Positions 10,649-61,122 of a stretch of DNA of 64,000 nt are shown one piece after another. How positions within the stretch are numbered: the stretch's first letter is position 1; every line of letters starts with the position of its first letter. Source of the DNA: an uncultured Candidatus Saccharibacteria bacterium. Lineage in GTDB: Bacteria; Patescibacteriota; Minisyncoccia; Phycocordibacterales; CAIZLB01. Where the stretch lies: assembly GCA_964450605.1 (NCBI GenBank), contig CAYVEK010000001.1:143933-207932 (forward strand). The letters run 5' to 3'. A program made the translations under genes and the position numbers. The notes beneath the pieces were generated by a model, which did not search any database, had not been told where the DNA came from, and saw only the letters and a program-made list of their open reading frames with translations.

Positions 10649-10665
10649 TCTATATAAAAAGAAAG

Positions 10666-10694: not shown

Positions 10695-10702
10695 GTGGAC
10701 AG

Positions 10703-38036: not shown

Positions 38037-38108
38037 GGCCCTATCGTCTAACGGTTAGGACATCGGCTTCTCAAGCCGGTAATCGGGGTTCGATTCCCCG
38101 TAGGGTCA
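38037..38108 (+). tRNA. tRNA-Glu (anticodon CUC)
   Basis: Manual fold: acceptor ggcccta/tagggtc, anticodon stem tcggc/gccgg with loop ttCTCaa, T-arm cggggTTCGATTccccg. Confidence 0.8.
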
Positions 38109-38136
38109 CCTTCAACAGCTAGCACGAGTAGCATAC

Positions 38137-39708: not shown

Positions 39709-42700
39709 TACGCTGTACATGCTGTACGATGTCATTAAGCACATCCTGTTTGTGCATATACCAATGCTGTGACCATATTCGATAGATCTTCCAACCTCGT
39801 GTTTCTAAGATATCCTGCCTCATTCTATCTCTAATTCTGGCTGACTTTGAAGAGTGGTATACCGCTCCATCACATTCTATTCCCAAAACATAGTCAGTAT
39901 TATTTTTAGGATTTACAATTGCAAGATCAATTTTGAAGCCTGAAACCCCAACCTGTCTTTTCACGACATAACCAATATCGGTAAGAGCTTTCTCTACACA
40001 CGCTTCAAAATCACTGTCATGTTCAGCATTTGAAGTATCACCTGCAATTAGATTACCCTCCAATACTTGCGAACCTTTTTCTGCATATTCAAGATATTTT
40101 TGGAGCAGTACAGCTCCTCTGGTACTAGTAGACGGACTCATATCACTAAACCTCATTGAAGTTACGCAAATCAACTTATCTTTTGCACGAGTGACTGCTA
40201 CATTCAAACGCCTATAACCAGCGGCTGAGGTGAGCGGTCCAAATCTATTGAAAACCTTTCCAGTCTTATCTGGTCCATAACAAACAGATAAAATAATTAC
40301 ATCTCTTTCGTCTCCTTGAACAGATTCTAGGTTTTTAATAAAAAAACTGTCTTTCTTTTCACTTGTCTCATCAAGATACTCAGTTAAATGAGGATACTCT
40401 TTTGAAAGTTTTTCTTCGAGAGCTGTACGTATCGCTTCTTCCTGGGATTTACTGAATGCAATAACACCCATGGTCTTATTAGGATTATTTTGCACATGTT
40501 CAATACATAATTTCGCTACTTCTTCAGCTTCTATTATGTTTGTCCTTGTTCCTGCGTGACGCTCTTTCTCACCATTTTCTTTATGAGTTATGATGCTTCC
40601 ATCGTAAACACCATTAACAAACTTAAATTCCACCCCTCTACTATTTTGCGGATTTGGAAATGTAATAAGACGATTCTGATAAATGTGGTAGTTAGAAAAA
40701 GCGATAAGATCTTCAGATGAGCTACGATAGTGGTATTTAAGATAAGCTTCAGATCCATTAAGTAAGCTAATAGATTTTTGAAGGATACTCTCAAATCCCG
40801 TCTCTTCGTTTACATCCTCATCTTCATCTTCGTCTCCATCGAGTGATACACCGAAAAATGACGTGGGTGGTAGCTGATGTTCATCACCAATCACCACAGC
40901 CTGTTTTGCTCTGGCTATGGCACCTAGTGCATTTTCAATTTTCATCTGTGAAGCTTCATCGAAAATTACCACATCGAAATTAACCGCTCCGTATTCTAGA
41001 TATGAGCTTAAAGCAAGAGGACTTACCATCCAGCATGGCTTCATAAGTTGAATATGTGAAGCGTACCGCTGAACCAGTGTTCTAATCGGTAAGTGCCTCA
41101 TTTTCTTATTAGCCTCATGTCTAAGCTTCTTGTCTGCCTCACAAGGTATCTGAGACATTTGCAGGAAAGGTAATTGCTGATGGAGAACTCTTAATCGATT
41201 TATCTCCATTGAATCTTTTTCTAGCTCTTTGAATTCCTTAATTATTTTCTCGTATTTGTCCTTCGTAAAATCTCTTAATTCATGATTTGATTCAGAATAA
41301 TTTTCTATCCATTTATTGAAAAACGCCCAAGAATATACGCACGCGAGATCCACACCCTTCGGTATAGAGAGCTTCGCAATTTCTGACATGAACCATTCCA
41401 TACCTATTTCTTCAAGAGCATGCTTCTTCTTTTTATATTCAACCCACCGCTCAAGTCCTGAAGAATCTCCAATCATCTGGTTTATCTCGGTCAACATAAT
41501 CTTATATGATTCCGAAAGTATATTTTCTCTAGTAGCCTCATTCTCAAAAAGACCAGTGAGCTTTTCTACCACAATACTCAAAGCTAGGTATGCCTCGTTG
41601 GAATCATTTATATTCTTTTGAAAGTCGAGTAGTAACGAAGTCAGCTTTGCAGATGATTTGTCAGAAAATTCTGGCACAAGATACGCCAAAAACTCATTAA
41701 CAGATTCTATATAAGAAATAAACGAATTTAATGTTTCGTCTTCCATTAATAAGTCAAAAGCAGACGATTCAACATAGTCATTTATCTTAGATTTCTTTAC
41801 AGCATTAATTATTTGATTTAAGCGATTAAGTACCTCAACTTCATCATTGAGAGAAGCTACATCTTTTGGCGAATACTCTTGAGATGAAATAAATGGCGTA
41901 ACTGCTGTAAAAGATTTTTTTATTTCAGAAACTTCTTCTTCGGTCTGATCAATCAAATTAATCAACTTAGCGAGTGGATACTCCAAAATATTGCATGAGG
42001 TAATATCTCCTAGCAGATCCCAGTTAGAGGTTATTTGTTCTATTTTTTGAGTCTTTTGGATAAGAATTGAATGTATCTTACTGTCAGAGATATATTTCTG
42101 TAGTACAGGTTCAATATACTCGATGTTATTTTTCTCAAAATATTCAATTAGACTCTCCAATCCTTTGTTTATTTTTTCATACGATAAGTGCCTTACGCTC
42201 TGATCTAGAGAGAATGTATCAATTATCTTTTTCCATTCCTCATCATATTTCGTTTGGGTCTTGGATCTAAAAGCAAGGCTAAAGATAATATCCTTTATTT
42301 CTGAATATTTCTCTGGTTTTCTTAAGATACACCATGATCCGACTTCTTTTCGGTCTGCCTTATAGGCACTTGAGAAGTATCTAAAAATATTTTTGTACTT
42401 TTCAAGAAAAATTCCTTCCAGAGCAATGATTTTTGCTGATTCAATTTCACTAAAATTAATACCGTATTTTTCTATAATATCTTGTGACTTTTGTATCTGG
42501 GAATAAAGAACTTCTAAATTCTTAACCGTGTTTCGAAGCTCGTAAATTTGAGATCGAGGTGCTTTTATTATAGGAGAGAGATAGGAATCAATCTGAAAGA
42601 GCAATTGTTTTGATTGAAAATCTTTAACAGAAAAATCCAGTACCTCTGCGGGTATCGTTTTGTCTATCTCCAGTTTAAGAGCAGACAGTGTACTTATGAT

Positions 42701-44662
42701 CGAAGCGCTTCTAGTTGAAAGAATTTCACTAATCTCAGCATCTTGCTTAATGATGTTAATATCTAGTTCCTTTAATTTCTTCCAGTCCTCTGGAAATACA
42801 TATTTGTCACCCTGAGCTAGTTCAGCTTTGTAGGATGACTTCATTTCGACGATCTCTTTGATTGAAGCTTTAACGAAGTTTAAATAATCAGAATCAAGTG
42901 ATTTTACCTTAGGGTAAGAATTATTAATTATATAATGACCATTTCCTCTTGAAAGTGATTCGATGGCTTCCTTTATTGCCTTTAGATTTTTAAAACTCGA
43001 TACATCAACTATTTTATCTAGTGCTAATAAACATTCTTTAGTTTCTTTCAAGGCTTCAATAACTCTTTGAGAAAAATCAACACTATAGTGTTTTCTGGCA
43101 ACACTCCTCCATATACTTTCTTCGGAAAATAGTCCGATCAAGTCATTTGTTTCTCTGATCAAAAACTCAGCTTGTTGATAATCTTCCAGTGTAAACTCTA
43201 GAGGACTTTTACCTTTCCAAGGCAACACAACTTCTTTTGATTTATCATTAACTTTTGCTAGTTCACCAAAAATCCAATAGATATTTTTATTTAATGGAGC
43301 GACTGATGTTGTAATCAAGGTACCATAAGATTTCAAAGAATCAATTTTCTTTTGTCTTAACTTTAATTTAGTTTCCAAATCAGCATCCTTATTCTTCTTC
43401 AACACAGAAACAACACTATCTCTTGAATCTAGGATATCTGAAGAAAAACTTTTCTTGTCATTCGTATAGTTAAAGAGTGGTAGACATAAATCTCCGACAC
43501 TTGCCCCCAAGCGTTTTCCGTCAATATCATAAGACAGTCTCTTGTAGACGACATCGAGTGCAACCTGTTTTTCACAAACAAATAACACCTTCTTCTTTCG
43601 AGCGAGCAGGTTTGATATAACATTCGCAATAGTCTGACTTTTTCCTGTTCCTGGCGGACCATGAATGACCATATGATCACCCGATACAATCTTCCTTATA
43701 GCTTGAATCTGACTTCCGTCAGCGTCTAAAATGGTGAAGTCTTCTTCCTTATTTAAAAAATCATCTGGGTTGAATTCTCCCTCATCAATTGTTACAAGAT
43801 CTGAATTATCTTGATGAAAAGAATCTCCACCACAAACACTATTGATAAAATCATGCTTTAGTATCTCATCTTGGTTCTTGTTGAGATCTTCATAGATTTG
43901 CTGTCCATGAAATGAAAACTGTCCGAGATAAATCTTTTCCGTAAAATCTACAGCGATTCCTTTTTCTTTAAAAATTTCTTTGATTTCTGAGAGAATTTTC
44001 CGCACTTCCGTGAAGGGCATTGCTAGAATTTCTTCTGCTGTTTCAGGTATATTTGGTAGGCGTAACTCAAAATTTTCTTTTATAAAGAGCAGAAGTACAG
44101 GATTTATTTGAGCCGGGTGCTGATTTGTGTCGATAGATAAAATTGTTGCCTTGTAGGGATCTTTCTCATTCTCCAAGGAAACAGGAACAAGCAATAGTGG
44201 AGCAATGTAATCTTGTTGTTTTACAGCATCTGTAGATCCACGCCCTACAGTTTTCTCCTTCCAGCAAACTTCTCCAAAAGCCATAAAAAGTGTGTGCAAT
44301 CCATGTTCGTCAAAGCTTTTCTTAGATTGTAATCTCATTCTCTCAAGAATAGAGATAAGTTTCTTGCCTTGAGGAGATGTTTTTGTGTCATATTCAGGAT
44401 CTCTGGCTTTCTTATCAGATTCTTCCGTTTCTGAAAAAAGATCATCTTGCTCTTCCTCTTTCAAAATTTTCTTGTGGTCAAAAATCGCATTCAACTCATC
44501 AAGACTTCCAAAATATGATGAACATTCTTCTAGGGAAATATTGAACTCAATCTTTGAAGCTTTCAGAGGATATTTCAAAAGACGATTTCTACGAGAAAAA
44601 TCAATAGCGGCTTGTTTATACCGCTTAAAGACTTCTAGAGTTTTTGCAGTTATTTTTGGCAT
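39698..44662 (-). CDS. Giant DUF4011 / SF1 (Upf1-like) helicase / C-terminal DUF559 (Vsr-like PD-(D/E)XK) nuclease protein; candidate defence helicase-nuclease
   Basis: N-terminal IDFSRRNRLLKYP (DUF4011 hallmark); Walker A IHGPPGTGKSQT; DEAS-like VIFDEASQM; SF1 motifs GDEHQLPPT, GDERDVIILS, VAVTRAK; C-terminal GIECDGAVYH...RDRMRQDILETRGWKIYRIW resembling the DUF559/Vsr endonuclease fold. Confidence 0.7.
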   Translation of the reverse strand: MPKITAKTLEVFKRYKQAAIDFSRRNRLLKYPLKASKIEFNISLEECSSYFGSLDELNAIFDHKKILKEEEQDDLFSETEESDKKARDPEYDTKTSPQGKKLISILERMRLQSKKSFDEHGLHTLFMAFGEVCWKEKTVGRGSTDAVKQQDYIAPLLLVPVSLENEKDPYKATILSIDTNQHPAQINPVLLLFIKENFELRLPNIPETAEEILAMPFTEVRKILSEIKEIFKEKGIAVDFTEKIYLGQFSFHGQQIYEDLNKNQDEILKHDFINSVCGGDSFHQDNSDLVTIDEGEFNPDDFLNKEEDFTILDADGSQIQAIRKIVSGDHMVIHGPPGTGKSQTIANVISNLLARKKKVLFVCEKQVALDVVYKRLSYDIDGKRLGASVGDLCLPLFNYTNDKKSFSSDILDSRDSVVSVLKKNKDADLETKLKLRQKKIDSLKSYGTLITTSVAPLNKNIYWIFGELAKVNDKSKEVVLPWKGKSPLEFTLEDYQQAEFLIRETNDLIGLFSEESIWRSVARKHYSVDFSQRVIEALKETKECLLALDKIVDVSSFKNLKAIKEAIESLSRGNGHYIINNSYPKVKSLDSDYLNFVKASIKEIVEMKSSYKAELAQGDKYVFPEDWKKLKELDINIIKQDAEISEILSTRSASIISTLSALKLEIDKTIPAEVLDFSVKDFQSKQLLFQIDSYLSPIIKAPRSQIYELRNTVKNLEVLYSQIQKSQDIIEKYGINFSEIESAKIIALEGIFLEKYKNIFRYFSSAYKADRKEVGSWCILRKPEKYSEIKDIIFSLAFRSKTQTKYDEEWKKIIDTFSLDQSVRHLSYEKINKGLESLIEYFEKNNIEYIEPVLQKYISDSKIHSILIQKTQKIEQITSNWDLLGDITSCNILEYPLAKLINLIDQTEEEVSEIKKSFTAVTPFISSQEYSPKDVASLNDEVEVLNRLNQIINAVKKSKINDYVESSAFDLLMEDETLNSFISYIESVNEFLAYLVPEFSDKSSAKLTSLLLDFQKNINDSNEAYLALSIVVEKLTGLFENEATRENILSESYKIMLTEINQMIGDSSGLERWVEYKKKKHALEEIGMEWFMSEIAKLSIPKGVDLACVYSWAFFNKWIENYSESNHELRDFTKDKYEKIIKEFKELEKDSMEINRLRVLHQQLPFLQMSQIPCEADKKLRHEANKKMRHLPIRTLVQRYASHIQLMKPCWMVSPLALSSYLEYGAVNFDVVIFDEASQMKIENALGAIARAKQAVVIGDEHQLPPTSFFGVSLDGDEDEDEDVNEETGFESILQKSISLLNGSEAYLKYHYRSSSEDLIAFSNYHIYQNRLITFPNPQNSRGVEFKFVNGVYDGSIITHKENGEKERHAGTRTNIIEAEEVAKLCIEHVQNNPNKTMGVIAFSKSQEEAIRTALEEKLSKEYPHLTEYLDETSEKKDSFFIKNLESVQGDERDVIILSVCYGPDKTGKVFNRFGPLTSAAGYRRLNVAVTRAKDKLICVTSMRFSDMSPSTSTRGAVLLQKYLEYAEKGSQVLEGNLIAGDTSNAEHDSDFEACVEKALTDIGYVVKRQVGVSGFKIDLAIVNPKNNTDYVLGIECDGAVYHSSKSARIRDRMRQDILETRGWKIYRIWSQHWYMHKQDVLNDIVQHVQRITG

Positions 44663-44730: not shown

Positions 44731-46047
44731 TTAGATATAGATCTTCTTGTTTTTCAATCGTATGTTTGTATTCAAGCACCTCATAAATTCTCGCTTCTCA
44801 TCCATTGTCCCTTCGATTAGGATGAACTTGGCATAGTTCCGAATATCAATATCTTTCACCACCACAGTTGTCTTGGCACCAAGTAACATCTGCTCAAACT
44901 TCTTGAATCTTTGCACTTCAGCCGTGATCTTTTCTCTCATAGGCACTGTCTGTATCTCTAAATCGTCCATGAGGTCTTGTAGTTGGACAACAAGGTCTTC
45001 TTCATTGATGAATCCACATGGACAGTCTTGATCTCTCGTTCTTGTACATTTGTAGTATACATATCGGTTCATGTTACCGTTCTTCTGGTGCTTGAACTTT
45101 TCATCTGCCGTAATACCTGATCCACATAGTCCGCAAGTCATAATCTTGGTGAAGGCAAACTCCTTTTGTTGTGATCTTGGCTCGAGTATCTGACTTTTAA
45201 TCTTCTCCTGAACAAGATCAAACAATTCTTTCGTAATTATTGCTTTATGTGATCCGTTATACCAATTACCTGATTCTTTTGGAAACTCAAACCTGCCGTA
45301 GTAAAAGTGATTTTGGAATATTCTATAGAGATTTCCTAGACTTAGGTGGATATTATTCTCAGTCTTAAAGTTTATATCGTGCTTGAGCCATTGATATACC
45401 TTTCGTCCACTCCAACCATCGTAACCAATTTTCTCGAACATCTGCTTGATAATCGGTGCTCGTTCAGGATCTATGATGGATTCGCATTTTTGATCTATTC
45501 TTTTGTACTTTGTGTATCCAGTTGGTGGTTTACATGGCCACAAACCCATTTCAACTCTTGCCCGTAACCCTCGCTTCACGTTAATACTCTTATTGTCGTT
45601 CTCAAGTTTTGCTTGAGAACACAAGATCATCAGTAAGAATTTCTCATTAGGCGAATTAGAAAAAGTTTGTCCGTAGGTTTGTATATGAATTAACTTTCTT
45701 TGATCCATAAGATCAACAACGGCTCCGAGGTCTCCAGCGTTTCTTGAAAGTCTATCGGGTGCCCATGTGAGTATTCCGTTATATACACCTTTCGAAACCT
45801 CATTAAGTAGTTCTTTGAACACTGGTCGTTGTCCAGATTCTTTTGCAGAGTGAGATTCTCGTTTTATATCCACCACATTCAGTTTCAACCTTTCCGCAAT
45901 CGCTGTCATTTCTTTGATCTGAGAATCGATGGACAGGGCTTGCTGTTCATCTGATTCGGTTGATTTTCGGGCATATAGGCAATACTTAATCCTAGTTTCT
46001 GTTATTGATATATTGCTATGAATTTTGCCGATTACATTCGATTCCAT
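44731..46047 (-). CDS. Large serine recombinase (integrase)
   Basis: Catalytic YARKSTESDEQ...SIDSQ and DRLSRN motifs; recombinase domain; Zn-ribbon CGLCGS...C; 438 aa. Confidence 0.8.
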   Translation of the reverse strand: MESNVIGKIHSNISITETRIKYCLYARKSTESDEQQALSIDSQIKEMTAIAERLKLNVVDIKRESHSAKESGQRPVFKELLNEVSKGVYNGILTWAPDRLSRNAGDLGAVVDLMDQRKLIHIQTYGQTFSNSPNEKFLLMILCSQAKLENDNKSINVKRGLRARVEMGLWPCKPPTGYTKYKRIDQKCESIIDPERAPIIKQMFEKIGYDGWSGRKVYQWLKHDINFKTENNIHLSLGNLYRIFQNHFYYGRFEFPKESGNWYNGSHKAIITKELFDLVQEKIKSQILEPRSQQKEFAFTKIMTCGLCGSGITADEKFKHQKNGNMNRYVYYKCTRTRDQDCPCGFINEEDLVVQLQDLMDDLEIQTVPMREKITAEVQRFKKFEQMLLGAKTTVVVKDIDIRNYAKFILIEGTMDEKREFMRCLNTNIRLKNKKIYI

Positions 46048-46405
46048 ATATTAATTAATGACAGACCAGTCAGGGGTGCATAGCTATGCAAAATAGCCGA
46101 AACGTAGCATGGTCGTTTTGGCTATTAGCAAGGCTATATTTTGGCGTTATTATTAATCTAGAATAATAGATATGAAAATGCTATTATTCATTTACAACTA
46201 AATAAGGCGACCTAACCCTATGGAATAAACCCTATAGGTATGGTCATAAAGTCGATCAAGTGTAAAGAACCCGTCATGGGGTTTTGCTTGATCGCCGTAC
46301 TGGGAAACTGGTACGAAGGACTTCGGTCCTTACCCGTGGCGGGCTTTTTGTATACAACAAAATTCTCGCTAGGTTACAAATAATTTAAGCCGATCAAGCA
46401 AAATT

Positions 46406-47194
46406 ATGGCACTACTATCATTTATACAAAACATACTCACAAAACGTGAGGGTATTAAGCAATATCAGACTAATATCGTTGAATACCTTAAAGACGGAAA
46501 ACTGAGTCAGACAGAGAAAGATGATCTGAATAAAATAAAGCTCGAGTACGGTATCACAGATAAGGATCTACAAAATATTCATAAAATTCAGGCATCGGCA
46601 GTTTTTAATAATATTTCTTCAGATCAGCGCATAACAGAGGATGAAAAAGAATCTTTAAGTTTAATTCTGGATCACTTTGGTTTGTCTGTGAAAGACTTTG
46701 ATTTCAATCAAAAGAATTTTAATAAGTATTATGCGATGGCACTTATTGATAAAGGAATGCTTCCGACCGTTGATCCAGAGAACTTCAAAGTACCTGTCAT
46801 AATGAAAAGTGGAGAAATAATTCACTTTGGCAGTGAGGCGAACTTAGTTAAGGTAAAGAAAGTAATGGAAAAGATGTTCTATGGAGGTCTTTCTGGATCG
46901 ATAAAGATTATGAAAGGTATGCGGTATAGATGGGGTACTATAAAACCGACAATTGCACACAAAGAAGTTTCAGCTATTGAGGATTCAGGCGTACTTTACA
47001 TTACCAATCAAAGAATTGGTTTTATTGGGTCGCGTAAGCAATTTTCGGTTCTGTATAATAAGATATCAGGCTTTGAATTACGGGCTGATGGATTGTATAT
47101 ATTCAAAGATGGGAAAGAATTACCATATATTGTGACGCTTCAAGATTACGAGGTTCCGCTCTCAATAATTTCGTCGTTATTAAACGATAATTGA
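46406..47194 (+). CDS. Hypothetical protein (TerB-like N-terminus plus bacterial PH-like C-terminus)
   Basis: DGKLSQTEKDDLNKI (TerB-like); C-terminal YITNQRIGFIGSRKQFSVLYNKISGFEL resembling bPH_2; weak. Confidence 0.3.
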   Translation: MALLSFIQNILTKREGIKQYQTNIVEYLKDGKLSQTEKDDLNKIKLEYGITDKDLQNIHKIQASAVFNNISSDQRITEDEKESLSLILDHFGLSVKDFDFNQKNFNKYYAMALIDKGMLPTVDPENFKVPVIMKSGEIIHFGSEANLVKVKKVMEKMFYGGLSGSIKIMKGMRYRWGTIKPTIAHKEVSAIEDSGVLYITNQRIGFIGSRKQFSVLYNKISGFELRADGLYIFKDGKELPYIVTLQDYEVPLSIISSLLNDN

Positions 47195-47196
47195 CT

Positions 47197-48705
47197 TTAG
47201 AATATTTTATCTCTCAAACCGTAAGTGATAGGTCTGCATTCTTCATTTTGACTCAGCTCATTTCTAGGAAAAGGACTAGGTCTATCGTGGTTTAGTTTGG
47301 AGATGTAATTTATGGCAAGACTAAGTGCGTCTACGAGGTCATCATGAGACTCTGTTCCAAAACCAATGAGTTGAGTGATTAATTCTTCGTTGCCGTATTC
47401 AGAGAATAGTACTTTCCCAGACTGAATATATTGCGAAGCGAGCATGAGTCTTGTGGACTTGTCTAAACCACCTAAAGATACGCTTTCTGCAATAACACCT
47501 TCTGATTGCAACATCTGTGTCAGCCCTGATTGTGTACCTACACCCTCAACCAAAACCGTACATTTGGGATACTTGATCATGTTGATGTAAGTAGTTTTTA
47601 TCTTTTTGACTGTGTCGGGGAATATGAGTTTTTGATTTATTGGATTCGGCATGATACATATTTTTAAATCACTACCAAAACCAAATACCTGTGTCACTAC
47701 AATGCTTGTATAGTCTGATCTCGCATTTTGTGATACCGCCAAATCAACACTGATATATGTGGACTTATATGGATATTTCCTTTTTATATCTTCTAAGTTT
47801 TTATATCTTTTAATCCACTCGGGTTTTATGATCTGATCATCAGGGGGTAAGATGCGTAGTAGGTATTCCCGTTGCCAAGCAATCTCGTCTCCTACATGTT
47901 TTTTGTATACTTCTACATCATCTTTAGTCTTAAATTTCCCAGGCCAAAGGCATACACCGTCTTTTGTAATTAGCGGATATTCCTTAAATACACCCTCCAT
48001 TTCACCATTAGATATTTTTCTTTTTACTCGCATGAGTAGTGAATCGTCATGCAGGAGGTTTCCTAAGCATACGAATCTAGTATTTTCGTCACCAAGAGGT
48101 CTAATCTCACTCATAAACCATTGGTATGTTTTATCTCTACTTTCCTTGGTTTTACATGATTGGATATCTTCGATGTCATCACAAATAATCAGACTCGGTC
48201 GATGTTCAAGGTGTCTTGACCCTCTAATGCTTTGTTCAGAAGATATAGCAGTAATTCGTGCATTAAGCTTTGTAAACGTAAGCGAAAGAGCACCCCACTC
48301 ATCACTTTCTTCCTTAAATGGACCGAGATCGTTTTTTAATAAGCTATTTGTTTCTAGCTCGATTTTAATGTTTGCTAGGTGTTGTCGGGCCTGTATGCGT
48401 GTTTGTGAGACTATGAGAATATACTTTTCTTTTCTATATCCAAGAATTGACCATATTGGATAGGATGTAGTTAGAATTGTAGATTTAGCTGATCCTCTAA
48501 ATGCTATGAGATACATATTCTCAATACTGTCATTCTGTGTTAGTTCGAATATCTCTTTTTGGAAGTCTGCAGTTTCACTTTTGATGTAATGAGGAAAATA
48601 GAAATGGAAAAAAAGAATGTGACTTCGAGATGTAATTCCTATACGCACCTTAGGGTCTTTTGCCATAAGGGCGAAATCGTCATTATTAATCATTGCTTTC
48701 TTCAA
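47197..48705 (-). CDS. Phage terminase large subunit-like protein
   Basis: N-terminal ATPase with FRGSAKST Walker-A-like motif; C-terminal RNaseH-like nuclease with SHDDLVDALS; ~500 aa. Confidence 0.6.
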   Translation of the reverse strand: MKKAMINNDDFALMAKDPKVRIGITSRSHILFFHFYFPHYIKSETADFQKEIFELTQNDSIENMYLIAFRGSAKSTILTTSYPIWSILGYRKEKYILIVSQTRIQARQHLANIKIELETNSLLKNDLGPFKEESDEWGALSLTFTKLNARITAISSEQSIRGSRHLEHRPSLIICDDIEDIQSCKTKESRDKTYQWFMSEIRPLGDENTRFVCLGNLLHDDSLLMRVKRKISNGEMEGVFKEYPLITKDGVCLWPGKFKTKDDVEVYKKHVGDEIAWQREYLLRILPPDDQIIKPEWIKRYKNLEDIKRKYPYKSTYISVDLAVSQNARSDYTSIVVTQVFGFGSDLKICIMPNPINQKLIFPDTVKKIKTTYINMIKYPKCTVLVEGVGTQSGLTQMLQSEGVIAESVSLGGLDKSTRLMLASQYIQSGKVLFSEYGNEELITQLIGFGTESHDDLVDALSLAINYISKLNHDRPSPFPRNELSQNEECRPITYGLRDKIF

Positions 48706-49084
48706 TTTTATCTGTGAATAATTTTGATGAGTTTAAAACTCTTTCGATTGCTTCTGCTTGTTCAGGGGTAAGTTCCTGACCCTGATGTTTGGTAGTCAGC
48801 TCAATCCTGTTTCTATACTTTGGACTTCTGCTAGAAAGCCAAAACCTAAGTGCAGGGAAGCTTTTTTCTTTTATGAGATTTAATAGTTGTGTTTCACTCA
48901 TGTCACTTATGAATTCCTCTCCCTCAATCATTGCCGAATGCATTTGAGCCTCAAATTCTTTATCCTCGTGTTTCCAGCGATAGATTGTGTTTCGAGATAA
49001 ATTTGATTGCTCACAAGCTACTTGAACTATTGGCACTTTCTTGAGACTTTCAAGAAATTTAGTTTTGTTTCTATTTTTCTTCAT
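48686..49084 (-). CDS. Small HTH protein, terminase small subunit-like
   Basis: HTH VACEQSNLSRNTIYRWK; overlaps the terminase large subunit start (operon). Confidence 0.4.
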   Translation of the reverse strand: MKKNRNKTKFLESLKKVPIVQVACEQSNLSRNTIYRWKHEDKEFEAQMHSAMIEGEEFISDMSETQLLNLIKEKSFPALRFWLSSRSPKYRNRIELTTKHQGQELTPEQAEAIERVLNSSKLFTDKIEESND

Positions 49085-50342
49085 GGTGAATAACTTGAGG
49101 ATTAATTCCGGTTAGTCTGATAAAACGTTTGATAATAAGGTCACAAAATACAGGCTCTTTTTCACAACCAAAGACTTTTCGACCTAACTGTTCACCTGCC
49201 AAGAGAGTACTACCAGATCCTAAGAAACTATCTAAAATAATGTCATTAGGCTTAGTACAGCGTTTGATAGCTTTTTCATGTAAACTTACAGGTTTGCTTG
49301 TTGCATGTTCCATGTCCTTGCCACTCAGTCTCTTTGTGAGCCATAGATCTATTTGATCATGTAGGTTGTTTCCTGTGGTCATGTCTCTGTTTACAACCTC
49401 GTTATTGGTATTTATGTTGTGAGTTAAATATGGTTTATTTCTCACTCCGTAGACGCAAGGTTCATAACATTTGTTGAATGCAACTCCTGGGGTAGGGTTC
49501 TGGGAGTTCTTTATCCATAGGCAAACACGCTTGTTCTCTATACCGAGTTTTCTATAGAGTTCCTGAATAACTCCTATATATACTTGATCACACCAGTAAA
49601 ATACATGAATATCTTCATGAGAGACTGCAAGTGCGGCTTCCATACTCTTACACAGAAAATCTTTATACTCATCAAATCCTCGACTATCACACACAGCGCC
49701 TCCATAAGATCTTTTACCTCCAATACCTCCATTGTAATCGATGTTGATGTTGTAGACTGGGTCAGAATAGATCATTGATACTCTTTCATTACCGCAGAGT
49801 TTCTGGACAACCTTAGGGTCAGTTGAATCTCCACAGATAATCCTGTGCTTTCCTAAAATTATAATATCTCCAGTTTTTGTTTTAGGTTCTTTGATTTTTT
49901 CTAGCTCTTTAGTAACATCAAATTCATCGTCTTTAGCCTCTAATTCTTTATCCCAAAATTCTGATAGCTCTATTGATTCAAAACCTGATTCCAGAAGCAT
50001 TCCGACATCAAAGGATTTGAGTTTGTCGGTGTCCCAAGTTCCACCCAATTTATTGCTTGATATTAGGTATTGTTCATATTCTTGATCAGTTAGTCTTCTG
50101 TTCGGTACTCGTACATCTATCATTTCTTCGCCTCGGTTTAATGCGAGCAACACCTTTAGTCTCTGATGTCCTGCAACAATTTTCCCGTCTGTGTCTACAA
50201 CAGGTATTTCAACGAGATTAAACTTTTTAAAACTCTTCGTTAGGTCAGCGAGTTGTTTCTGGTTGATTTTTCTTGGATTTTTGTCGTACGGTAAAAGTTC
50301 TGATACTTTTCTTTTTTCATTGTGCCATTCTAATTTTTCCAT
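49071..50342 (-). CDS. ParB-like nuclease domain fused to DNA methyltransferase (N6-adenine/N4-cytosine, beta-class)
   Basis: ParB N-domain PYDKNPRKI...AGHQRLKVL; catalytic SDPVYN (DPPY); AdoMet motif I ILDSFLGSGST. The ORF could extend to 50426 (alternative start). Confidence 0.7.
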   Translation of the reverse strand: MEKLEWHNEKRKVSELLPYDKNPRKINQKQLADLTKSFKKFNLVEIPVVDTDGKIVAGHQRLKVLLALNRGEEMIDVRVPNRRLTDQEYEQYLISSNKLGGTWDTDKLKSFDVGMLLESGFESIELSEFWDKELEAKDDEFDVTKELEKIKEPKTKTGDIIILGKHRIICGDSTDPKVVQKLCGNERVSMIYSDPVYNINIDYNGGIGGKRSYGGAVCDSRGFDEYKDFLCKSMEAALAVSHEDIHVFYWCDQVYIGVIQELYRKLGIENKRVCLWIKNSQNPTPGVAFNKCYEPCVYGVRNKPYLTHNINTNNEVVNRDMTTGNNLHDQIDLWLTKRLSGKDMEHATSKPVSLHEKAIKRCTKPNDIILDSFLGSGSTLLAGEQLGRKVFGCEKEPVFCDLIIKRFIRLTGINPQVIHHEEK

Positions 50343-50689
50343 ATATTTTTTATGATTATTGTTTATATATAGAGAACACAAAACACCATACGAGATGTAT
50401 GGTGTTTGCTTGTACACGCAATACATCGAGATGATAAATAACCAGTCTTGTTTTATGAGACTAGTAACTTATGACCTAGATTTATTGCAGGTTGTGTTTA
50501 TAAATCAATCTTCACTTTCATTGGATGTTGTCCTTATGAATGTGAAGACATTGATCGAAAATCTGTTCTTTTTGTTTCGGATATTGTCCATTCGACAAAA
50601 AGGGTGGCAAAGATTGATCTGAGGAATTGTGTAGTTGTAGAGTTCTCCTGTTGGTATTGTAGGTTGCCAGCATATTTAAAGTCAAGCAC

Positions 50690-50720
50690 ATAAATGCTCT
50701 CATGGTGTAAAAATATATGA
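50690..50720. promoter_or_regulatory. Perfect 10-bp inverted repeat (operator-like) in the divergent intergenic region
   Basis: aatgtgacac-gtcg-gtgtcacatt; followed by direct repeats tgtcactttt x2. Confidence 0.4.
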
Positions 50721-50817
50721 AATGTGACACGTCGGTGTCACATTATGTGTGTTTTTATGTCACTTTTGTCACTTTTTAACTCTGGATATAGGGTTATTAG
50801 GCTGTTATACTTACTCT

Positions 50818-51225
50818 ATGAAAACTATTACCATCTGCGGATCAATGAAATTAAAGGAAAAGATGTATGAAATAGAAGGACAGCTCAGAGACCTAGGCTT
50901 TGGAGTTTTACTACCAAATATAACTAAAACTAAAAATTATGAAAATATGACTGAAATAGAACAGTACGCATTTAAAAACAGAATGATTGTTGACCATTTC
51001 AACAAGATCAAAGAAGGTGATGCTGTCTTAATTCTCAATGATCGACTCAAAGACATAGACAATTATATCGGTGCAAATTCATTTCTTGAAATAGGTTTTG
51101 CATTCTCTTTTGGTAAGAAAATATTTATACTTAACAATCTGCCACAACAACCCAATACGGTTGAGATTGGTGGTATGATGCCCATATGTTTAAATGGTGA
51201 TTTAAATAAAATTAACATCAATTAG
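50818..51225 (+). CDS. Nucleoside 2-deoxyribosyltransferase-like (flavodoxin-like fold) protein
   Basis: MKTITICGSM...GDAVLILN...FLEIGFAFSFGKKIFIL pattern typical of the NDT-like / DUF4406 family; moderate. Confidence 0.4.
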   Translation: MKTITICGSMKLKEKMYEIEGQLRDLGFGVLLPNITKTKNYENMTEIEQYAFKNRMIVDHFNKIKEGDAVLILNDRLKDIDNYIGANSFLEIGFAFSFGKKIFILNNLPQQPNTVEIGGMMPICLNGDLNKININ

Positions 51226-51229
51226 TCAT

Positions 51230-51661
51230 ATGGAGATCAAGAAAACCGGAACATCGAGCGATGGCAAACAAATGCATTATTCTGTAGGTATAATAGTGGA
51301 ATGCAATGGAAAACATCTACTCTTAGATAGAATTAACCCTCCTTTTGGCTTTGCATGCCCAGCAGGTCACATTGATGAAGATGAGGATCCGAAAGAAGCA
51401 TGTCTTCGTGAGCTCAGGGAGGAAACTGGTATTGTCCTAAATGATATTGAATTTATTTGCGAAGAAGAAATCCCTTGGAACTATTGTAAATCAGCTGAGG
51501 TACATTATTGGTATTTGTATAAAGCAAAAGTGGAGTCTGAAAATGTTGTTTTGGAAAAAGATGGCGCCAGAAGTATCGGGTGGTATTCTCCTGAAGAAAT
51601 AAAAGCGCTTAATTTAGAAAAAGTGTGGGAATACTGGTTCAAAAAACTTAAATTATTTTAA
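51230..51661 (+). CDS. NUDIX hydrolase
   Basis: Nudix box G-HIDEDEDPKEACLRELREETGI (GX5EX7REUXEEXGU). Confidence 0.8.
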   Translation: MEIKKTGTSSDGKQMHYSVGIIVECNGKHLLLDRINPPFGFACPAGHIDEDEDPKEACLRELREETGIVLNDIEFICEEEIPWNYCKSAEVHYWYLYKAKVESENVVLEKDGARSIGWYSPEEIKALNLEKVWEYWFKKLKLF

Positions 51662-51669
51662 TTAGTGGC

Positions 51670-52137
51670 ATGAATAAATTAATAATACATAAAATTCAAT
51701 CGAATTCAGAAAAAGATTCTGATTATTCTGAATACTTGTCTAGTATAAAAAAGACGTTCAAGGAAATACCTTGGATTAACAAGATCGAAGGACTTTATTC
51801 TGAAATCTATTTTCTGTACTTAGATTCAAAATTTGTAGCCGGTGTAACTTTGTTTGAAAAGTGCCCTGAAGATATTAAGATTACAGAAAAAGCAGATAAC
51901 TTGTTTGGTAACTTTGTATTTGCATCTTGTTTGTACGTAAAACCAGAATACAGGAATAAAGGTTACGGATATAAACTACTTAAAAAGGCTATATTAGACA
52001 CTGTGTCTAGAGGTGCTAAATTTATAGGTATTGTTGATAATACTAATCAAAAACTTATTGATTCCTATAAGAAAAACTTTTTAGTAAAGATTGTTGCTAT
52101 AAATTCTAAGATATCTTTTATTGAATTTATAAAATAG
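51670..52137 (+). CDS. GNAT family N-acetyltransferase
   Basis: Motif A LYVKPEYRNKGYGYKLLKKAI. Confidence 0.65.
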   Translation: MNKLIIHKIQSNSEKDSDYSEYLSSIKKTFKEIPWINKIEGLYSEIYFLYLDSKFVAGVTLFEKCPEDIKITEKADNLFGNFVFASCLYVKPEYRNKGYGYKLLKKAILDTVSRGAKFIGIVDNTNQKLIDSYKKNFLVKIVAINSKISFIEFIK

Positions 52138-52271: not shown

Positions 52272-52353
52272 GTGACCCTAAGCGATGTGTCTGCACACAT
52301 CGCGTCAGGGAATCGAAAAGCTTTTCTATGTTTTGAGAATCCCTTGGATTCGA
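52272..52353 (+). repeat. Structured direct repeat, copy 1 (conserved scaffold A-V-B-C)
   Basis: gtgaccctaagcg / 16-nt variable palindromic segment atgtgtctgcacacat / cgcgtcagggaat / cgaaaagcttttctatgttttgagaatcccttggattcga. Blocks A and C are near-identical to 55967-56095. Confidence 0.7.
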
Positions 52354-52681: not shown

Positions 52682-54610
52682 ATGAATATAAGCGAAGTCC
52701 ATATCAAAAACTATCGATCAGTAAAGGACGAAAAGATATACTTTAGCCCAAAGTGTCGAATTTTGGTTGGTATCAATGAGTCAGGAAAGACAAATATTTT
52801 GAATGCTCTGGCTTTAATTGACCAATCAAGAAAAACAACTATCGCAGATAAACGGGAGCCTCTTAGAGGCGAGGATGAAATTGATGAGTCTTTTGTGAGA
52901 TTCTTTTTCACTCTTGATGAGGAAGAAAAGAAGAAAGTCGTTGAAGATATGAAGTCATCAGTTCTTTCAAAATCGATTGAAGAGCCGGTGATTAATTTGC
53001 TTGGAAAAGACTATTCTTTTGAAAGTTTTTTACTTCATAAAAGATATTTCTATGAAGTGAACATTCTCAAAACATCAAAACAGCCAATGCATTTTCTTAT
53101 CAATTCCGATAAACCAAAGGTTTCTAATAAATGGAAGAAGATTAGCGAATCTTGCCCTGAAGATTTGATGGTTGATGTCGATGGGATGAAGGTTGCGGTA
53201 AAGAGCTATAAATTTGTTCATGCTAGTGATTACCCTGAAATCCCATCTGAACATTTGGCAGAGATCGGTCATGAAGAATTAAATAAGTTTGTAGGTGGGA
53301 AGGTTACAACGCATATGGGTACCAATCTACATAAGGTTATTTACTGGGATTATGAAGAATCGAAGATTCTACCATCAAGAGTTCCTCTTCAGGATTTTAC
53401 TAATGATCCGGAAATTTGTATTCCTCTTAAACGTATGTTTGAACTTAAGGGTATTGAAGATATAAAAGGTGCAATTGAGAACGCACAAAAGGCCGGGGGT
53501 AAATCTTTAGATAACCTACTCGGAAGAATAGCCGATCAGACTTCAAAGTATTTCCATGATACCTGGAAAGAATATGACAATATAAATTTTTCTCTGAAAA
53601 CTAACGGTGCCGATATAGAAACATCGATCCAGGATAAATCGAATAGTTTTGATTTTACACAAAGAAGTGACGGTTTCAAAAGATTTGCTACTTTCTTGCT
53701 CATTGTTTCCGCAAGAGCAGAGACGGATGCATTAAAAAACAACCTTATCTTGATCGATGAACCGGAGATAGGTCTTCACCCAAAAGGAGCAAGGTATTTA
53801 CGAGATGAACTTATCAAGATCTCTAAAGAGAATTATGTTGTATTCTCTACACATTCAATATTTATGATTGATAATAAACTCATAGATAGACACTTGTTGG
53901 TTAAGAAAGAAGATGAAGTTACCTCAACTAAAAATGCTGATCCTTCAAATCTTCTGGAGGAAGAGGTGTTGTATCAAGCGTTGGGGCATTCTATTTATTC
54001 TCACTTACATGAGAAAAATATTGTTTTTGAAGGTTGGCACGACAAACAATTGTTTAATTTAGCAATTGATTATTCAAGAGCGCCTGCGGGGTATGCTGGC
54101 CTTAAACAACTCTTTGAAGGTGTCGGTTTAACCTACGCACAAGGAGTTAGTGATATTAAGTACATAACTCCGCTTTTTGCTTCAGGTAATCGAAAATGCT
54201 TAATACTTACTGACAACGATGATCCTGCGAAGAATGCACAGAAGGATTTCAAAAATACTCACGGTTTTGGTAACTGGAAGCGATATCCTGAGGTCGAATC
54301 AACACTCACAGCTTTTACGGGTGAAGATTTTATAAAACACACCGCTTTTGTTCCAATACTTGAAAAAATAAAATCAGACAACGGATACGCTGTTGATGTA
54401 CCGGATCTCTCTACTGCAAGTGCGGGCGGTAAAGGTAAGGTGTATGTTATAAAGCAATGGTTTATTGCAAATGGGGTGACTGGAGATGACTTAAGGGCAG
54501 CGATGAAGAATTTTAAAGATACACTTTTTACAACAATTTTGCATTCCGACATTGAAGCAGACTATTTTACATACCTTCAACAGGTCGGTGGTTTGATTGC
54601 GGGTATGTAA
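52682..54610 (+). CDS. OLD-family (overcoming lysogenization defect) ATPase-TOPRIM nuclease
   Basis: N-terminal ABC-type ATPase GINESGKTNILNAL (Walker A), LILIDEPEIGLHP (Walker B / D-loop), STHS (H-loop); C-terminal TOPRIM with IVFEGWHD (catalytic Glu) and LILTDNDD (DxD). Confidence 0.75.
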   Translation: MNISEVHIKNYRSVKDEKIYFSPKCRILVGINESGKTNILNALALIDQSRKTTIADKREPLRGEDEIDESFVRFFFTLDEEEKKKVVEDMKSSVLSKSIEEPVINLLGKDYSFESFLLHKRYFYEVNILKTSKQPMHFLINSDKPKVSNKWKKISESCPEDLMVDVDGMKVAVKSYKFVHASDYPEIPSEHLAEIGHEELNKFVGGKVTTHMGTNLHKVIYWDYEESKILPSRVPLQDFTNDPEICIPLKRMFELKGIEDIKGAIENAQKAGGKSLDNLLGRIADQTSKYFHDTWKEYDNINFSLKTNGADIETSIQDKSNSFDFTQRSDGFKRFATFLLIVSARAETDALKNNLILIDEPEIGLHPKGARYLRDELIKISKENYVVFSTHSIFMIDNKLIDRHLLVKKEDEVTSTKNADPSNLLEEEVLYQALGHSIYSHLHEKNIVFEGWHDKQLFNLAIDYSRAPAGYAGLKQLFEGVGLTYAQGVSDIKYITPLFASGNRKCLILTDNDDPAKNAQKDFKNTHGFGNWKRYPEVESTLTAFTGEDFIKHTAFVPILEKIKSDNGYAVDVPDLSTASAGGKGKVYVIKQWFIANGVTGDDLRAAMKNFKDTLFTTILHSDIEADYFTYLQQVGGLIAGM

Positions 54611-54633
54611 CTGTTCATTATTTATATAAACCT

Positions 54634-54930
54634 ATGCAAGAAATCTTTATTCATGTCTGTGGTGTGGTTTTAGGAGCCATTGTTCTCAGATTGCTTGGTT
54701 TACATAAAAAAGTTGTTGTTCACACCAACCACGTTCAAGTTAGTATAATTTGGAAAGTATTAAAAAGTCTAGGAAAGTTTTGTTTTTTCTATGGCTTATT
54801 TGTTTTTCACATAAATTTGCTGGTGACAGGGGTTGAATCACCAAATGTCGGCATTGGTGTAACCATTTTGACCTTAGGTTTCTTTGCGTGGGTGATCGGC
54901 TCCATTACTTTTTTTATTAAAGGAAACTAA
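54634..54930 (+). CDS. Small integral membrane protein (3 predicted TM helices), co-operonic with the OLD nuclease
   Basis: Hydrophobic helices VCGVVLGAIVLRLLGL, FCFFYGLFVFHINLLVTGV, IGVTILTLGFFAWVIGSITFFI; 23-bp gap from the OLD gene. Confidence 0.5.
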   Translation: MQEIFIHVCGVVLGAIVLRLLGLHKKVVVHTNHVQVSIIWKVLKSLGKFCFFYGLFVFHINLLVTGVESPNVGIGVTILTLGFFAWVIGSITFFIKGN

Positions 54931-54932
54931 GG

Positions 54933-55781
54933 ATGAATCAGATTGAAGAATCTATTTTTTCAATTCAAATAGGCTTATTAAACAGGGCTCAGAATCTACT
55001 TGAAGATAGGATAAGTCAATTAGAGGTTTTTGAAAGATCGAAAGAGTTCACTTCAAATGACGCTTCTGAGAAAGCCGCGTGCGTTGGAGTTTTCAAGATT
55101 AGATCTGCCAAGTTTTTTAGAGATACTCTTTCATATTTAATATCTGAATCAGCAAGAACCGAGCCAAAGGTACATTTTTTTATGTTGCCAAATATAAGAG
55201 CACTAACGAATGTACATGCTAACTTTTTACATCTTCTAGAGTCCGGTAATGAAGATAAACAGGCGTTGATTTGTATTGCATACCAGCTACTTACAATGAA
55301 AGATCTACAAAACGACGTTGAATACGCAAAAGTATTGGATATGAATAAAAATTTCCTTGCAACCCAATCGGTTGTCTTTCCAGCCTCACCTGCAGACTTT
55401 AGTTACAAATGGATGCAAAAGCAGAAGCTGACCTTGGGTAGAATGGATCAATTACTTGAGTCTGATGTGGTTAAAAAATATTCTTCAAATGTTGTAGCTG
55501 TTTTTATGCCGAAAGAACAGTATCGCATATATTCTACTCTTTCAGAATTTTTACATGGAAATCCATATTATTATGATGACAATCCTCACAACGAGAGATT
55601 TTGGATTGTTGCGTTTTCAATATCCATTACTGCTTTCCTGATTGAAATTATTGATACTTATTTTTTAAATAAGATAAACCCTAGAGACTTCAGGGTGTGG
55701 CTACTTGATGTAAAAAGACAGCGGGGTGATTTTTCAAATCTTTGGAAGTCGAAAGCGCATACAGGTAAGATTTCGACTTAA
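54933..55781 (+). CDS. Hypothetical protein with C-terminal TM helix, third gene of the OLD operon
   Basis: 2-bp gap from the upstream gene; TM helix FWIVAFSISITAFLIEIIDTYFL near the C-terminus; no known motif. Confidence 0.45.
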   Translation: MNQIEESIFSIQIGLLNRAQNLLEDRISQLEVFERSKEFTSNDASEKAACVGVFKIRSAKFFRDTLSYLISESARTEPKVHFFMLPNIRALTNVHANFLHLLESGNEDKQALICIAYQLLTMKDLQNDVEYAKVLDMNKNFLATQSVVFPASPADFSYKWMQKQKLTLGRMDQLLESDVVKKYSSNVVAVFMPKEQYRIYSTLSEFLHGNPYYYDDNPHNERFWIVAFSISITAFLIEIIDTYFLNKINPRDFRVWLLDVKRQRGDFSNLWKSKAHTGKIST

Positions 55782-55966: not shown

Positions 55967-56095
55967 GTGACCCTAAGCGGGCAAACAGCTTTACTCGCGT
56001 CTGGGTGAACCTTCGAAGAAGGTGTAGGGCCAGAGCACGACAGTGCGAGGTATGCCGAAAAGCTTTTCTATGTTTTGAGAATCTTTTGGATTCGA
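55967..56095 (+). repeat. Structured direct repeat, copy 2 (same scaffold with a different 16-nt variable segment and a 46-nt insertion)
   Basis: gtgaccctaagcg / ggcaaacagctttact / cgcgtctgggtgaa / 46-nt insert / cgaaaagcttttctatgttttgagaatcttttggattcga. Confidence 0.7.
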
Positions 56096-60492: not shown

Positions 60493-60506
60493 GCGTCATA
60501 AGTCTG

Positions 60507-60548
60507 GATACGCGCCCCTGCACTTCTGCAAAGAAGTGTGGGGTTTTT
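60507..60548 (+). terminator. Rho-independent terminator
   Basis: cccctgcacttc-tgcaaa-gaagtgtgggg followed by TTTTTATTTT. Confidence 0.6.
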
Positions 60549-60623
60549 ATTTTGTAAATATGTAAAACAAAAAACCACCATCTCGCGACAGTGGTTTCTG
60601 TGCTGAAATGGTGGAGGTAGATA

Positions 60624-60998: not shown

Positions 60999-61122
60999 GG
61001 TATGGTTGGTGGGTTTGGTAAGGTTCAACTGTCCTATACAAAGTAGCACCTTTGGTAAAATAATCAAGCGAATACAAGAAGCTTTCGATATACTTAAAAA
61101 AAGTTGTGCTATCATATTACCC

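Follow-up and report, generated by a model that had tools for sequence, protein, structure and literature searches.

The 64,000-nucleotide stretch analysed here (the window, from contig CAYVEK010000001.1 of an uncultured Candidatus Saccharibacteria bacterium) carries, at positions 44731 to ~50750, a compact set of genes for a large serine recombinase, both terminase subunits and a DNA methyltransferase, together with the Rfam RNA LOOT and a cargo gene. On balance, we regard this set as a ~6-kb compact copy belonging to a conserved integrative-element family, satellite-like in character, of Patescibacteria. The 64 kb of the host genome were read throughout, and the loci of relatives (given L numbers) were read to ±10 kb around the module. 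The features of the element are as follows.

44731–46047, minus strand: large serine recombinase (SR), a probable integrase of 438 aa (Pfam, PHROG and PDB matches)
46048–46208: SR–LOOT spacer of 161 nt, with the imperfect inverted repeat AATAGCCGAAACG...CGTTTTGGCTATT
46209–46331, plus strand: LOOT RNA (Rfam RF03000), 77.3 bits against a gathering score of 46.4
46332–46375, plus strand: conserved 3′ extension of LOOT, a hairpin with the loop motif GGGCUUUUUGU (alignment by eye)
46406–47194, plus strand: cargo protein of 262 aa, with an N-terminal helical domain and a C-terminal PH-like domain
47197–48705, minus strand: terminase large subunit (TerL); phrog_38 3e-77, Pfam Terminase_6C 8.9e-7
48686–49084, minus strand: small helix-turn-helix protein of 132 aa resembling the terminase small subunit (TerS); PHROG TerS families 3e-10 to 3e-3
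49071–50426, minus strand: fusion of ParB-N and N6_N4_Mtase domains (MT); phrog_498 1e-82, phrog_620 (ParB-like) 5e-23, Pfam 6e-27
50427–50748: control region 5′ of the MT operon, with a palindrome and a −35-like hexamer

The SR protein scores against the Pfam families Resolvase (PF00239, 3.3e-20, residues 24–168), Recombinase (PF07508, 1.6e-13) and Zn_ribbon_recom (PF13408, 9.7e-9) as well as the PHROG integrase family phrog_95 (4.5e-61), and a resolvase-type KST motif lies at residues 28–30 (YARKSTESDEQQ). Among solved structures it comes closest to YokA, the integrase of SPbeta (3e-11, alignment over residues 25–363), and to TP901-1 Int, and its best NCBIfam matches are CcrB/XisF-like, with all scores far under the cut-offs of those families. 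The predicted architecture is that of a three-domain large serine recombinase, i.e. a catalytic N-domain followed by Recombinase and zinc-ribbon domains.

TerL probably starts at 48693, which gives a 498-aa form (P0001). The motifs FRGSAKST (Walker A) and SHDDLVDALS, on which a sequence-only reading of the window had based its terminase assignment, are present at residues 69 and 453, respectively, and LIICDD is found at residue 172. The nuclease domain (PF17289, Terminase_6C) spans residues 319–466 with D321, E387 and D455/D456 invariant, and the Walker A, Walker B and nuclease Asp/Glu columns are all invariant among 25 homologs of ~50% mutual identity. Against the NCBIfam T7-type TerL the protein scores 4e-16, under the cut-off of that family. 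A search of the PDB with the single sequence returned no match and the profile alone matched, to T7 gp19 and to the ATPase domain of a second phage large terminase. The MT protein belongs to the class of beta-class N6A/N4C DNA methyltransferases, with CcrM as its match in the PDB (2e-12). The motif reported earlier as DPPY actually reads SDPVY (motif IV) and is accompanied by FLGSG; the likely start is M29, at 50342. Overall, profile hidden Markov models agree with the earlier calls of all four core genes, and the terminase assignment passes this check. The TerS-like call is the weakest of the four, as its Pfam matches all lie under cut-off and only PHROG TerS families match; an ORF (open reading frame) at the TerS position is kept in 119 sources. 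The TerS-like gene overlaps both of its neighbours, MT and TerL, consistent with a single operon in which MT is first. The base composition of the module is the same as that of its surroundings. Homologs of TopA assign the window to Patescibacteria (Parcubacteria-type), the named matches at 63–75% identity being Taylorbacteria, Nomurabacteria and ‘Patescibacteria group’; exact look-ups of TerL, MT, P0001 and P0121 in the contig index gave no match.

Head, portal, tail and lysis families were found in none of the ORFs between 35 and 64 kb by Pfam and PHROG searches, which bears out the earlier remark that virion and lysis genes are lacking nearby. The usual partner of TerL, a portal gene in the same genome and typically the next gene, is absent from the island of the window and from 140 related loci. 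A lone ‘portal’ PHROG match at 51230–51661 was rejected because the 143-aa product is a NUDIX-domain protein (Pfam NUDIX, 7e-19).

The module is not particular to this genome. In a collection with one genome per species, at least 562 species-level genomes carry it (at least 562 confirmed loci). TerL homologs form 3131 clusters, with named matches in Nomura-, Pacei-, Colwell- and Moranbacteria, and the best 80 module loci are nearly all labelled Patescibacteria or candidate phyla radiation (CPR); the few other labels among these 80 probably reflect binning or naming. ORFs were called in all loci read and then clustered, which gives a family order of MT, TerS, TerL, 0–13 cargo ORFs and SR. The co-oriented run MT-TerS-TerL is retained in ~75 of the first 80 loci and SR in 65. 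MT lies 5′ of TerL and shares its strand in 115 of the 118 module loci with room for it; of the 71 loci with room on the 3′ side of TerL, 59 have SR there, 58 of them on the strand of TerL. No ORF separates TerL from SR in 27 loci and 1–13 ORFs do so in 32, the window having one ORF plus LOOT. Tandem pairs of TerL-cluster ORFs occur in L087, L091, L095, L096, L109 and L135, and cross-matching by blastn suggests that each pair consists of full-length paralogs that have diverged, not of one gene broken in two.

The lack of structural genes is likewise a property of the family. When 95 ORFs from the structural side of phage loci were compared with the 140 module loci, no homologs were found save three marginal matches (E ~1e-4), among them a portal-like ORF of 523 aa in L146, which is probably a phage locus. 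Of the 150 PHROG families matched by 109 flank proteins, the 25 listed include no head or tail family, and some 45 IMG/VR contigs (among L081–L128) that are catalogued as viral carry the module and cargo without structural genes. The left arm of the relatives (left of MT) holds leftward defence cassettes, as in the window, and the defence genes flanking related modules include CBASS (cyclic-oligonucleotide-based antiphage signalling), caspase, type III restriction–modification (RM), diversity-generating retroelement and SNase genes; the placement of the module between defence-like genes, noted earlier for the window, therefore holds in both. Two conserved left-arm proteins of relatives (354 and 221 aa) have no match in Pfam, PHROG, NCBIfam or the PDB. 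In 44 related loci, a divergent LexA-type gene is present (e.g. L008 6842–7489, minus strand; L010 6835–7482, minus strand). It passes the NCBI lexA equivalog cut-off (148.7 against 110.95 bits), falls within the blocks shared between elements and adjoins both copies in a two-copy genome, and the short intergenic region beside it often contains AGCAA-N4-TTGCT. In the window, a perfect palindrome, AATGTGACAC-GTCG-GTGTCACATT, at 50721–50744 overlaps a −35-like hexamer between the MT operon and the divergent operon that begins at 50749. This palindrome is a probable operator candidate, although its kind is not rare by chance, as 23 of 100 shuffles gave at least one match with up to 3 mismatches.

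The TerLs of the family cluster apart from those of related phages, and its core genes are maintained by selection. Temperate tailed phages (L129–L159) have a homologous ParB-MT and TerL (36–42% identity for TerL) in the same order as the element; unlike the element, they continue into co-oriented portal (phrog_2662, 6e-123), protease and major head (phrog_10, 6e-90) genes, with no SR nearby. Such phages are the probable ancestors of the element, or of a type that might act as its helper. On clustering by the unweighted pair group method with arithmetic mean, 131 module TerLs group together with no portal-linked member, separately from 23 portal-linked or short-contig TerLs, and the portal-linked TerLs fall in the separate group in 17 of 17 cases. 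The ratio of non-synonymous to synonymous substitution (dN/dS; Nei–Gojobori, five closest locus pairs) is 0.00–0.09 for MT, TerS, TerL, SR and the LexA-like gene, with TerS at 0.01–0.04; all four core genes are thus under strong purifying selection in close pairs. Pairwise distances of the four proteins are correlated over 73 loci (Mantel r 0.40–0.78; 0 of 200 permutations reach the observed values), which fits co-transfer and common vertical descent alike.

The ends of the element are best seen in relatives whose flanks differ. Across relatives, blocks of 6–9 kb with 87–95% nucleotide identity are common to different flanks. L010, L012 and L014 share 8.8 kb at 87–94% nucleotide identity with unrelated left flanks, and the right edge of this block is the SR stop codon; its order is a 63-aa ORF, Cap15, CD-NTase, an ORF, the LexA-like gene, a 207-aa ORF, MT, TerS, TerL and SR. 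In one assembly, two contigs (L001 and L002) are 93% identical from just before MT to the end of SR and 95% identical over the left-end gene, yet the cargo is a caspase-type cassette in one and CBASS in the other, each with a different LexA-like gene. In relatives, the SR stop codon is where the blocks terminate; no attachment (att) sites of SR, attL or attR, can be defined in the window. Serine integrases use short att sites and hence leave no long repeats.

A tRNA gene lies a few kilobases beyond SR with its 3′ end facing SR in 25 of the 60 loci scanned, as does tRNA-Glu in the window; in the relatives it is a tRNA-Gln, tRNA-Ser or tRNA-Glu gene. The DNA between SR and the tRNA differs among otherwise near-identical elements. 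The left junction of the L010 subfamily consists of a stretch that matches the 3′ flank of tRNA-Gln exactly, with TGGC added, and then TGGCGTCCTTGAGCC. In the metagenome contigs L162 and L164, this left junction is continuous with the tRNA-Gln-proximal region, which in L010 and L014 instead lies beyond SR and its downstream cargo; the shifting position of the region indicates that L010-subfamily elements live in rearranging, tRNA-linked islands. Four more metagenome copies of a 27-mer from the left end of L010, L012 and L014 were found, none of which joins the SR end to the left end, so that a circular or tandem form is unsupported.

Two further observations concern these junctions. A conserved region of ~317 bp by tRNA-Gln (L010 19270–19582; L014 17451–17738; L164, flipped, 1376–1663) codes for a ~95-aa ORF in L164 and precedes quite different cargo operons across genomes, and in L164 it abuts the left end of the element instead. 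On the complementary strand, the left end of L010, L012 and L014 (L012 4078–4125) reads GTCCTTG...CAAGGAC and then GCCA; such an acceptor-stem-like helix with a CCA-like tail is suggestive of a tRNA-derived fragment at the junction, and ARAGORN calls no tRNA at this left end.

Two features had been overlooked in the sequence-only reading, namely the LOOT RNA at 46209–46331 (plus strand) and the 262-aa ORF that follows it. LOOT reportedly has been seen in metagenomes only, without an assigned organism or function, near terminase genes; the main text of the 2017 paper is silent on it. The copy in the window covers the full Rfam model (positions 1–121). With covariance models based first on the window and two relatives and later on 42 hits, LOOT is detected in 42 of the 81 genome sources, in 10 of the 80 sources from IMG/VR (every match at 40 bits or more) and in 0 of 17 portal-linked phage loci. 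SR is on the 5′ side of LOOT in 30 of 52 cases. LOOT is divergent from SR in 14 cases, 40–168 nt (mostly 140–168 nt) from the SR start, and lies 39–87 nt 3′ of the SR stop in 16. A same-strand ORF follows LOOT in 44 of the 52 cases, usually within 5–90 nt, and varies in kind: a membrane-anchored OB-fold protein (17), a membrane-anchored SNase (4), PH-like, zinc-ribbon, PD-(D/E)xK and other proteins. LOOT is thereby placed in a defined Patescibacteria element, where it neighbours SR, precedes a variable cargo gene and has an additional conserved 3′ hairpin.

The predicted LOOT pairs are formed in 94.9% of cells, whereas shuffles reach 63.4% and slid controls no more than 39.6%, and 31 of 35 pairs have changes on both sides; as the alignment was fitted to the model, these counts are tilted in favour of structure. 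The G-U pairs in four LOOT helices argue for a strand-specific RNA. In the 70 nt 3′ of 32 LOOT copies, compared by eye, the GGGCUUUUUGU loop is conserved and the flanking arms covary in a complementary manner. LOOT as a terminated small RNA was rejected as the sole reading, the U-run after LOOT being situated in the conserved hairpin loop. The SR–LOOT spacer probably holds divergent promoters, as judged from its sequence and the divergent arrangement shared with 14 relatives.

The 262-aa ORF begins 75 nt 3′ of LOOT, in the slot occupied by the variable cargo of relatives. The protein has no sequence match in Pfam, NCBIfam or the PDB and a weak PADLOC match (PDC-S48, 9e-10); 35 homologs were found, mostly in CPR. 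Its AlphaFold2 model (pLDDT 86.8) leads by Foldseek to PH domains (best 8e-4). The order of SR, a divergent LOOT and a 262-aa homolog is repeated in L165–L167 (Magasanikbacteria, 6284–11915), where SR (leftward), LOOT, a 260-aa and a 253-aa ORF (rightward), a 203-aa ORF and ParB-MT (leftward) follow one another without TerS or TerL; the flanks hold CBASS and an HTH_3/Peptidase_M78 (ImmR/ImmA-type) pair. A homolog of 46% identity is also present in Legionella worsleiensis (L168/L169, 8001–8813), beside a tyrosine integrase and AlpA in one of two assemblies, and points to inter-phylum transfer of the cargo gene.

Among known systems, the closest likeness is to phage satellites. Known satellites redirect packaging by means of their own TerS (PMC9618062). 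Phage-inducible chromosomal islands (PICIs), including the Staphylococcus aureus pathogenicity islands (SaPIs), and the marine virion-encapsidated integrative mobile elements (VEIMEs) are, like the element, small and integrated, lack virion and lysis genes, and carry an integrase, their own TerS and accessory or defence cargo (PMC9618062). They have a repressor-controlled operon, for which the divergent LexA-type gene of 44 related loci would be a candidate counterpart; the window has no such gene, only the palindrome as a candidate operator. The element also resembles PICIs in size and packaging genes (~10–15 kb, TerS, no structural or lysis genes), with a core of ~6 kb in the window and 8.8–10 kb in relatives. 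It differs from them in its large serine rather than tyrosine recombinase, in having TerL beside TerS, in its ParB-MT and in its Patescibacteria hosts, and also in having no recognised primase/rep module and no att direct repeats that were found. By the defining features of integrase type, replication module and att repeats, the element is not a PICI. Capsid-forming PICIs (cf-PICIs) bring their own TerS and TerL, and their definition further requires genes for capsid, portal, protease and head–tail connector proteins. The element likewise brings both terminase subunits, but capsid, portal, protease and connector genes are found neither in it nor in the 140 related loci.

[quoted passage not shown] The PLEs of Vibrio cholerae do share with the element a large serine recombinase and are anti-phage satellites (PMC6002521, PMC9638900, PMC9618062); the likeness in sequence considered here is that of a shared recombinase superfamily. 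The Ccr proteins of SCCmec, TnpX of Tn4451, SprA of SPbeta and XisF of fdxN have the same three-domain recombinase, and in the element the SR gene stands at the element end; none of these elements has a terminase operon.

Taken together, the conservation, selection and architecture of the family are well supported, and its lifestyle is what we infer. The retention of an integrase, a repressor and a packaging enzyme with loss of replication, shell and lysis genes would, in the simplest case, correspond to a life by packaging into the proheads of another phage. In their established roles, serine integrases bring elements into and out of the chromosome, a pac or cos site is recognised by TerS, and TerL cuts the DNA and drives it into a prohead that has a portal; the methyltransferases of phages guard DNA from restriction, and LexA-type repressors tie expression to DNA damage. 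By the same logic, SR would integrate and excise the element, whose own TerS and TerL would find and cleave its DNA and fill with it the proheads that a related helper phage supplies, and MT would protect the packaged DNA. Such an element would be a satellite in that it brings the whole packaging enzyme and no shell. Until induction, the operon may be kept silent by a repressor, which in many relatives would be a LexA-type protein and in the copy of the window another factor, acting at the 50721–50744 palindrome. Anti-phage genes in the cargo slots might pay for the upkeep of the element. The element is most likely a phage parasite sited among anti-phage genes, some of which it may itself carry.

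Several findings count against a satellite. No terminal direct repeats were found on any contig, neither an excised circle nor an empty attB was seen, and the 3′ end and flank of tRNA-Glu are not repeated anywhere in the window at up to 5–7 mismatches, so that the flanking attL/attR repeats suggested earlier did not materialise. No replication gene (primase or rep) is recognised in the core or the conserved left-arm proteins, and the window contains no LexA-like gene, none of the c6/c17/c26 upstream genes and no other recognisable regulator. No helper phage was identified, the nearest phage TerLs being ~40% identical, and we found no described satellite that has TerL but lacks capsid genes, from the literature and general knowledge. 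At least one relative (L165–L167) keeps MT, LOOT and SR but has lost TerS and TerL. Moreover, dS ranges from 0.2 to 1.9 between ‘close’ copies, and this spread together with the recurring tRNA-adjacent position could mean long vertical residence.

A domesticated or defence module, in which MT, TerS and TerL act in the cell without transfer and SR merely anchors or rearranges the locus, is an unlikely account. Variants of it would have the terminase interfere with related phages during infection, by cutting their concatemers or packaging them wrongly, or pair with MT as an RM-like system with self-protecting methylation. Defence genes stand on both sides of the module in the window (Hhe/PDC-S37; OLD/AriA-like) and in relatives, purifying selection is strong and residence looks long, neither replication genes nor excised forms were found, and PICIs and PLEs are themselves defence elements (PMC9618062). 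However, no PADLOC model matches TerL, TerS or SR, the order of MT, TerS and TerL comes unaltered from phages, in which its role is packaging, and a block that ends exactly at the SR stop and occurs in two copies with different cargo in one genome behaves as a mobile element. Interference with packaging and spread as a satellite are compatible with each other and need not be mutually exclusive. The machinery might instead be divided over the chromosome, with head, tail and lysis genes of a prophage or of a system like a gene transfer agent (GTA) located elsewhere; we consider this improbable. The GTA of Rhodobacter capsulatus is encoded at multiple loci. An intact, selected packaging enzyme does need a prohead from somewhere, the view is limited to ±10 kb of the relatives and 64 kb of this genome, and the clade-wide distribution with low dN/dS would suit a domesticated system. 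Against it stand the 140 module loci without a related structural gene, the multiple copies with different cargo in some genomes, and the absence of the module at the same site in the closest relative found together with its tie to an integrase at its end, none of which would be expected of a core domesticated GTA.

The sequence-only reading had proposed a PICI-like satellite or a heavily degraded prophage; of these, the satellite-like part fits best and, as set out above, the PICI part does not hold. A cryptic prophage remnant, from which the structural, replication and lysis modules were deleted and which has no present function, is very improbable, even though the best annotated matches of every core gene are in phages, the nearest outside TerLs are in true phages with the same order of MT, TerS and TerL, and one relative has lost TerL and TerS. 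The degraded prophage lacks support because more than 130 loci read and at least 562 species share this reduced gene set, again with no structural genes, and because dN/dS is 0.00–0.09 in close pairs. No catalytic residue varies, the TerLs of the elements cluster by themselves, and independent deletions would not repeat the same end points; an escape through assembly duplicates is excluded by identities of 46–56% and different flanks. The element accordingly shows none of the relaxed selection, pseudogenes or idiosyncratic end points of a decaying prophage. A variant of the satellite reading, to which we give little credence, is a platform for lateral transduction in which packaging would run in situ from a pac site at or near terS through the cargo and SR into the chromosome, mobilising the adjacent defence island and tRNA region at high frequency. 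In the window and many relatives, the operon does aim at the cargo slot and SR, past which comes a variable defence region bounded by a tRNA gene, and the DNA from SR to the tRNA varies among otherwise near-identical elements. The variant is nevertheless purely inferential, and ordinary turnover at a hotspot explains the variable region equally well. Rather speculatively, and as a view we would hold with doubt, the MT-TerS-TerL-LOOT-SR cassette may be a hitherto unrecognised, Patescibacteria-wide class of self-packaging mini-element with a full terminase and neither shell nor replicon, moving both itself and the adjacent tRNA-linked defence island from one to another of these ultra-small, host-attached bacteria via borrowed proheads, possibly by packaging in situ, with a LexA-type repressor in many copies and with LOOT as a regulator of the cargo or a cofactor of SR.

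Very few phages or mobile elements of Patescibacteria have been described (PMC12366544), and in the literature searched, with incomplete coverage, we found no description of this module in Patescibacteria, CPR or Saccharibacteria; the movement of Patescibacteria defence islands is unaddressed in the literature found. One conserved element in hundreds of species offers a handle on horizontal transfer in a large, mostly uncultured clade. If its members are satellites, they widen the known strategies to a complete terminase without capsid genes and with a serine integrase. An orphan Rfam RNA gains a host clade and genomic setting, which yields testable hypotheses for its role, and the family is a source of compact large serine recombinases with definable element ends. 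As ~45 ‘viral’ IMG/VR contigs carry the module without structural genes, terminase-based calls of viruses or prophages in CPR may be inflated.

The remaining features of the window surround the element in a variable island.

38037–38110, plus strand: tRNA-Glu(CTC), 3′ end towards the island; synteny with L170 stops 21 nt past it
38131–61880: variable island of ~23.7 kb, the element flanked on either side by defence-like genes (L170 compared with the window by blastn/tblastx)
38173–39708, plus strand: DUF2779 protein, whose cluster adjoins the module in four other loci
39698–44662, minus strand: Hhe/PDC-S37-like helicase-nuclease of 1654 aa; DUF4011, SF1 helicase and MTES_1575 nuclease; PADLOC PDC-S37 (1e-288) and Hhe
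50749–52137, plus strand: cargo operon 1, weak Nuc_deoxyrib_tr-like, NUDIX and GNAT proteins
52682–55781, plus strand: cargo operon 2, 642-aa OLD/AriA-like AAA_15 ATPase (52682–54610) and ORFs of 98 and 282 aa
56232–57779, plus strand: cargo operon 3, Pol-beta-type nucleotidyltransferase and a 247-aa ORF
57.8–61.9 kb: Peptidase_S51-family protein, ABC transporter and unannotated ORFs (Pfam/PHROG scans)

None of the three cargo operons is a complete known defence system by PADLOC. No closer relative genome was found than L170, with a TopA of 89% identity; it is syntenic with the window through tRNA-Glu(CTC) to 38131, and weak similarity resumes at ~61.9–62.07 kb. After tRNA-Glu, L170 (1–6045) has 5.1 kb of unrelated genes (DUF1653, PF1765-like, PG_binding and transglutaminase-like), with neither the module nor a prophage at this site; the suggestion that relatives might hold an intact prophage at the same tRNA-Glu thus finds no support in the closest of them. 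The different gene content at tRNA-Glu in the two genomes marks the site as a variable hotspot in both.

Patches of 43–51% G+C are found at 2001–4000, 11001–12000 and 59001–61000 in a genome of ~37% G+C, with no rRNA or other RNA family in them by Rfam. Direct repeats flanking the element or the island were not found, and the other repeats are short and chance-like with the exception of a 40-nt repeat. Its copies at 52314–52353 and 56056–56095 are 95% identical, with a weaker copy at 50556–50595, and it sits in the long spacers (~320–545 nt) 5′ of each plus-strand cargo operon and includes the palindromes GAAAAGCTTTTC and GAATC-N5-GATTC. Minus-strand ORFs of 70, 168 and 100 aa near the cargo operons were rejected as proteins, as they gave no protein alignment, and since those lying over the 40-nt repeat fail in this way, the shared element is taken to be DNA or RNA.

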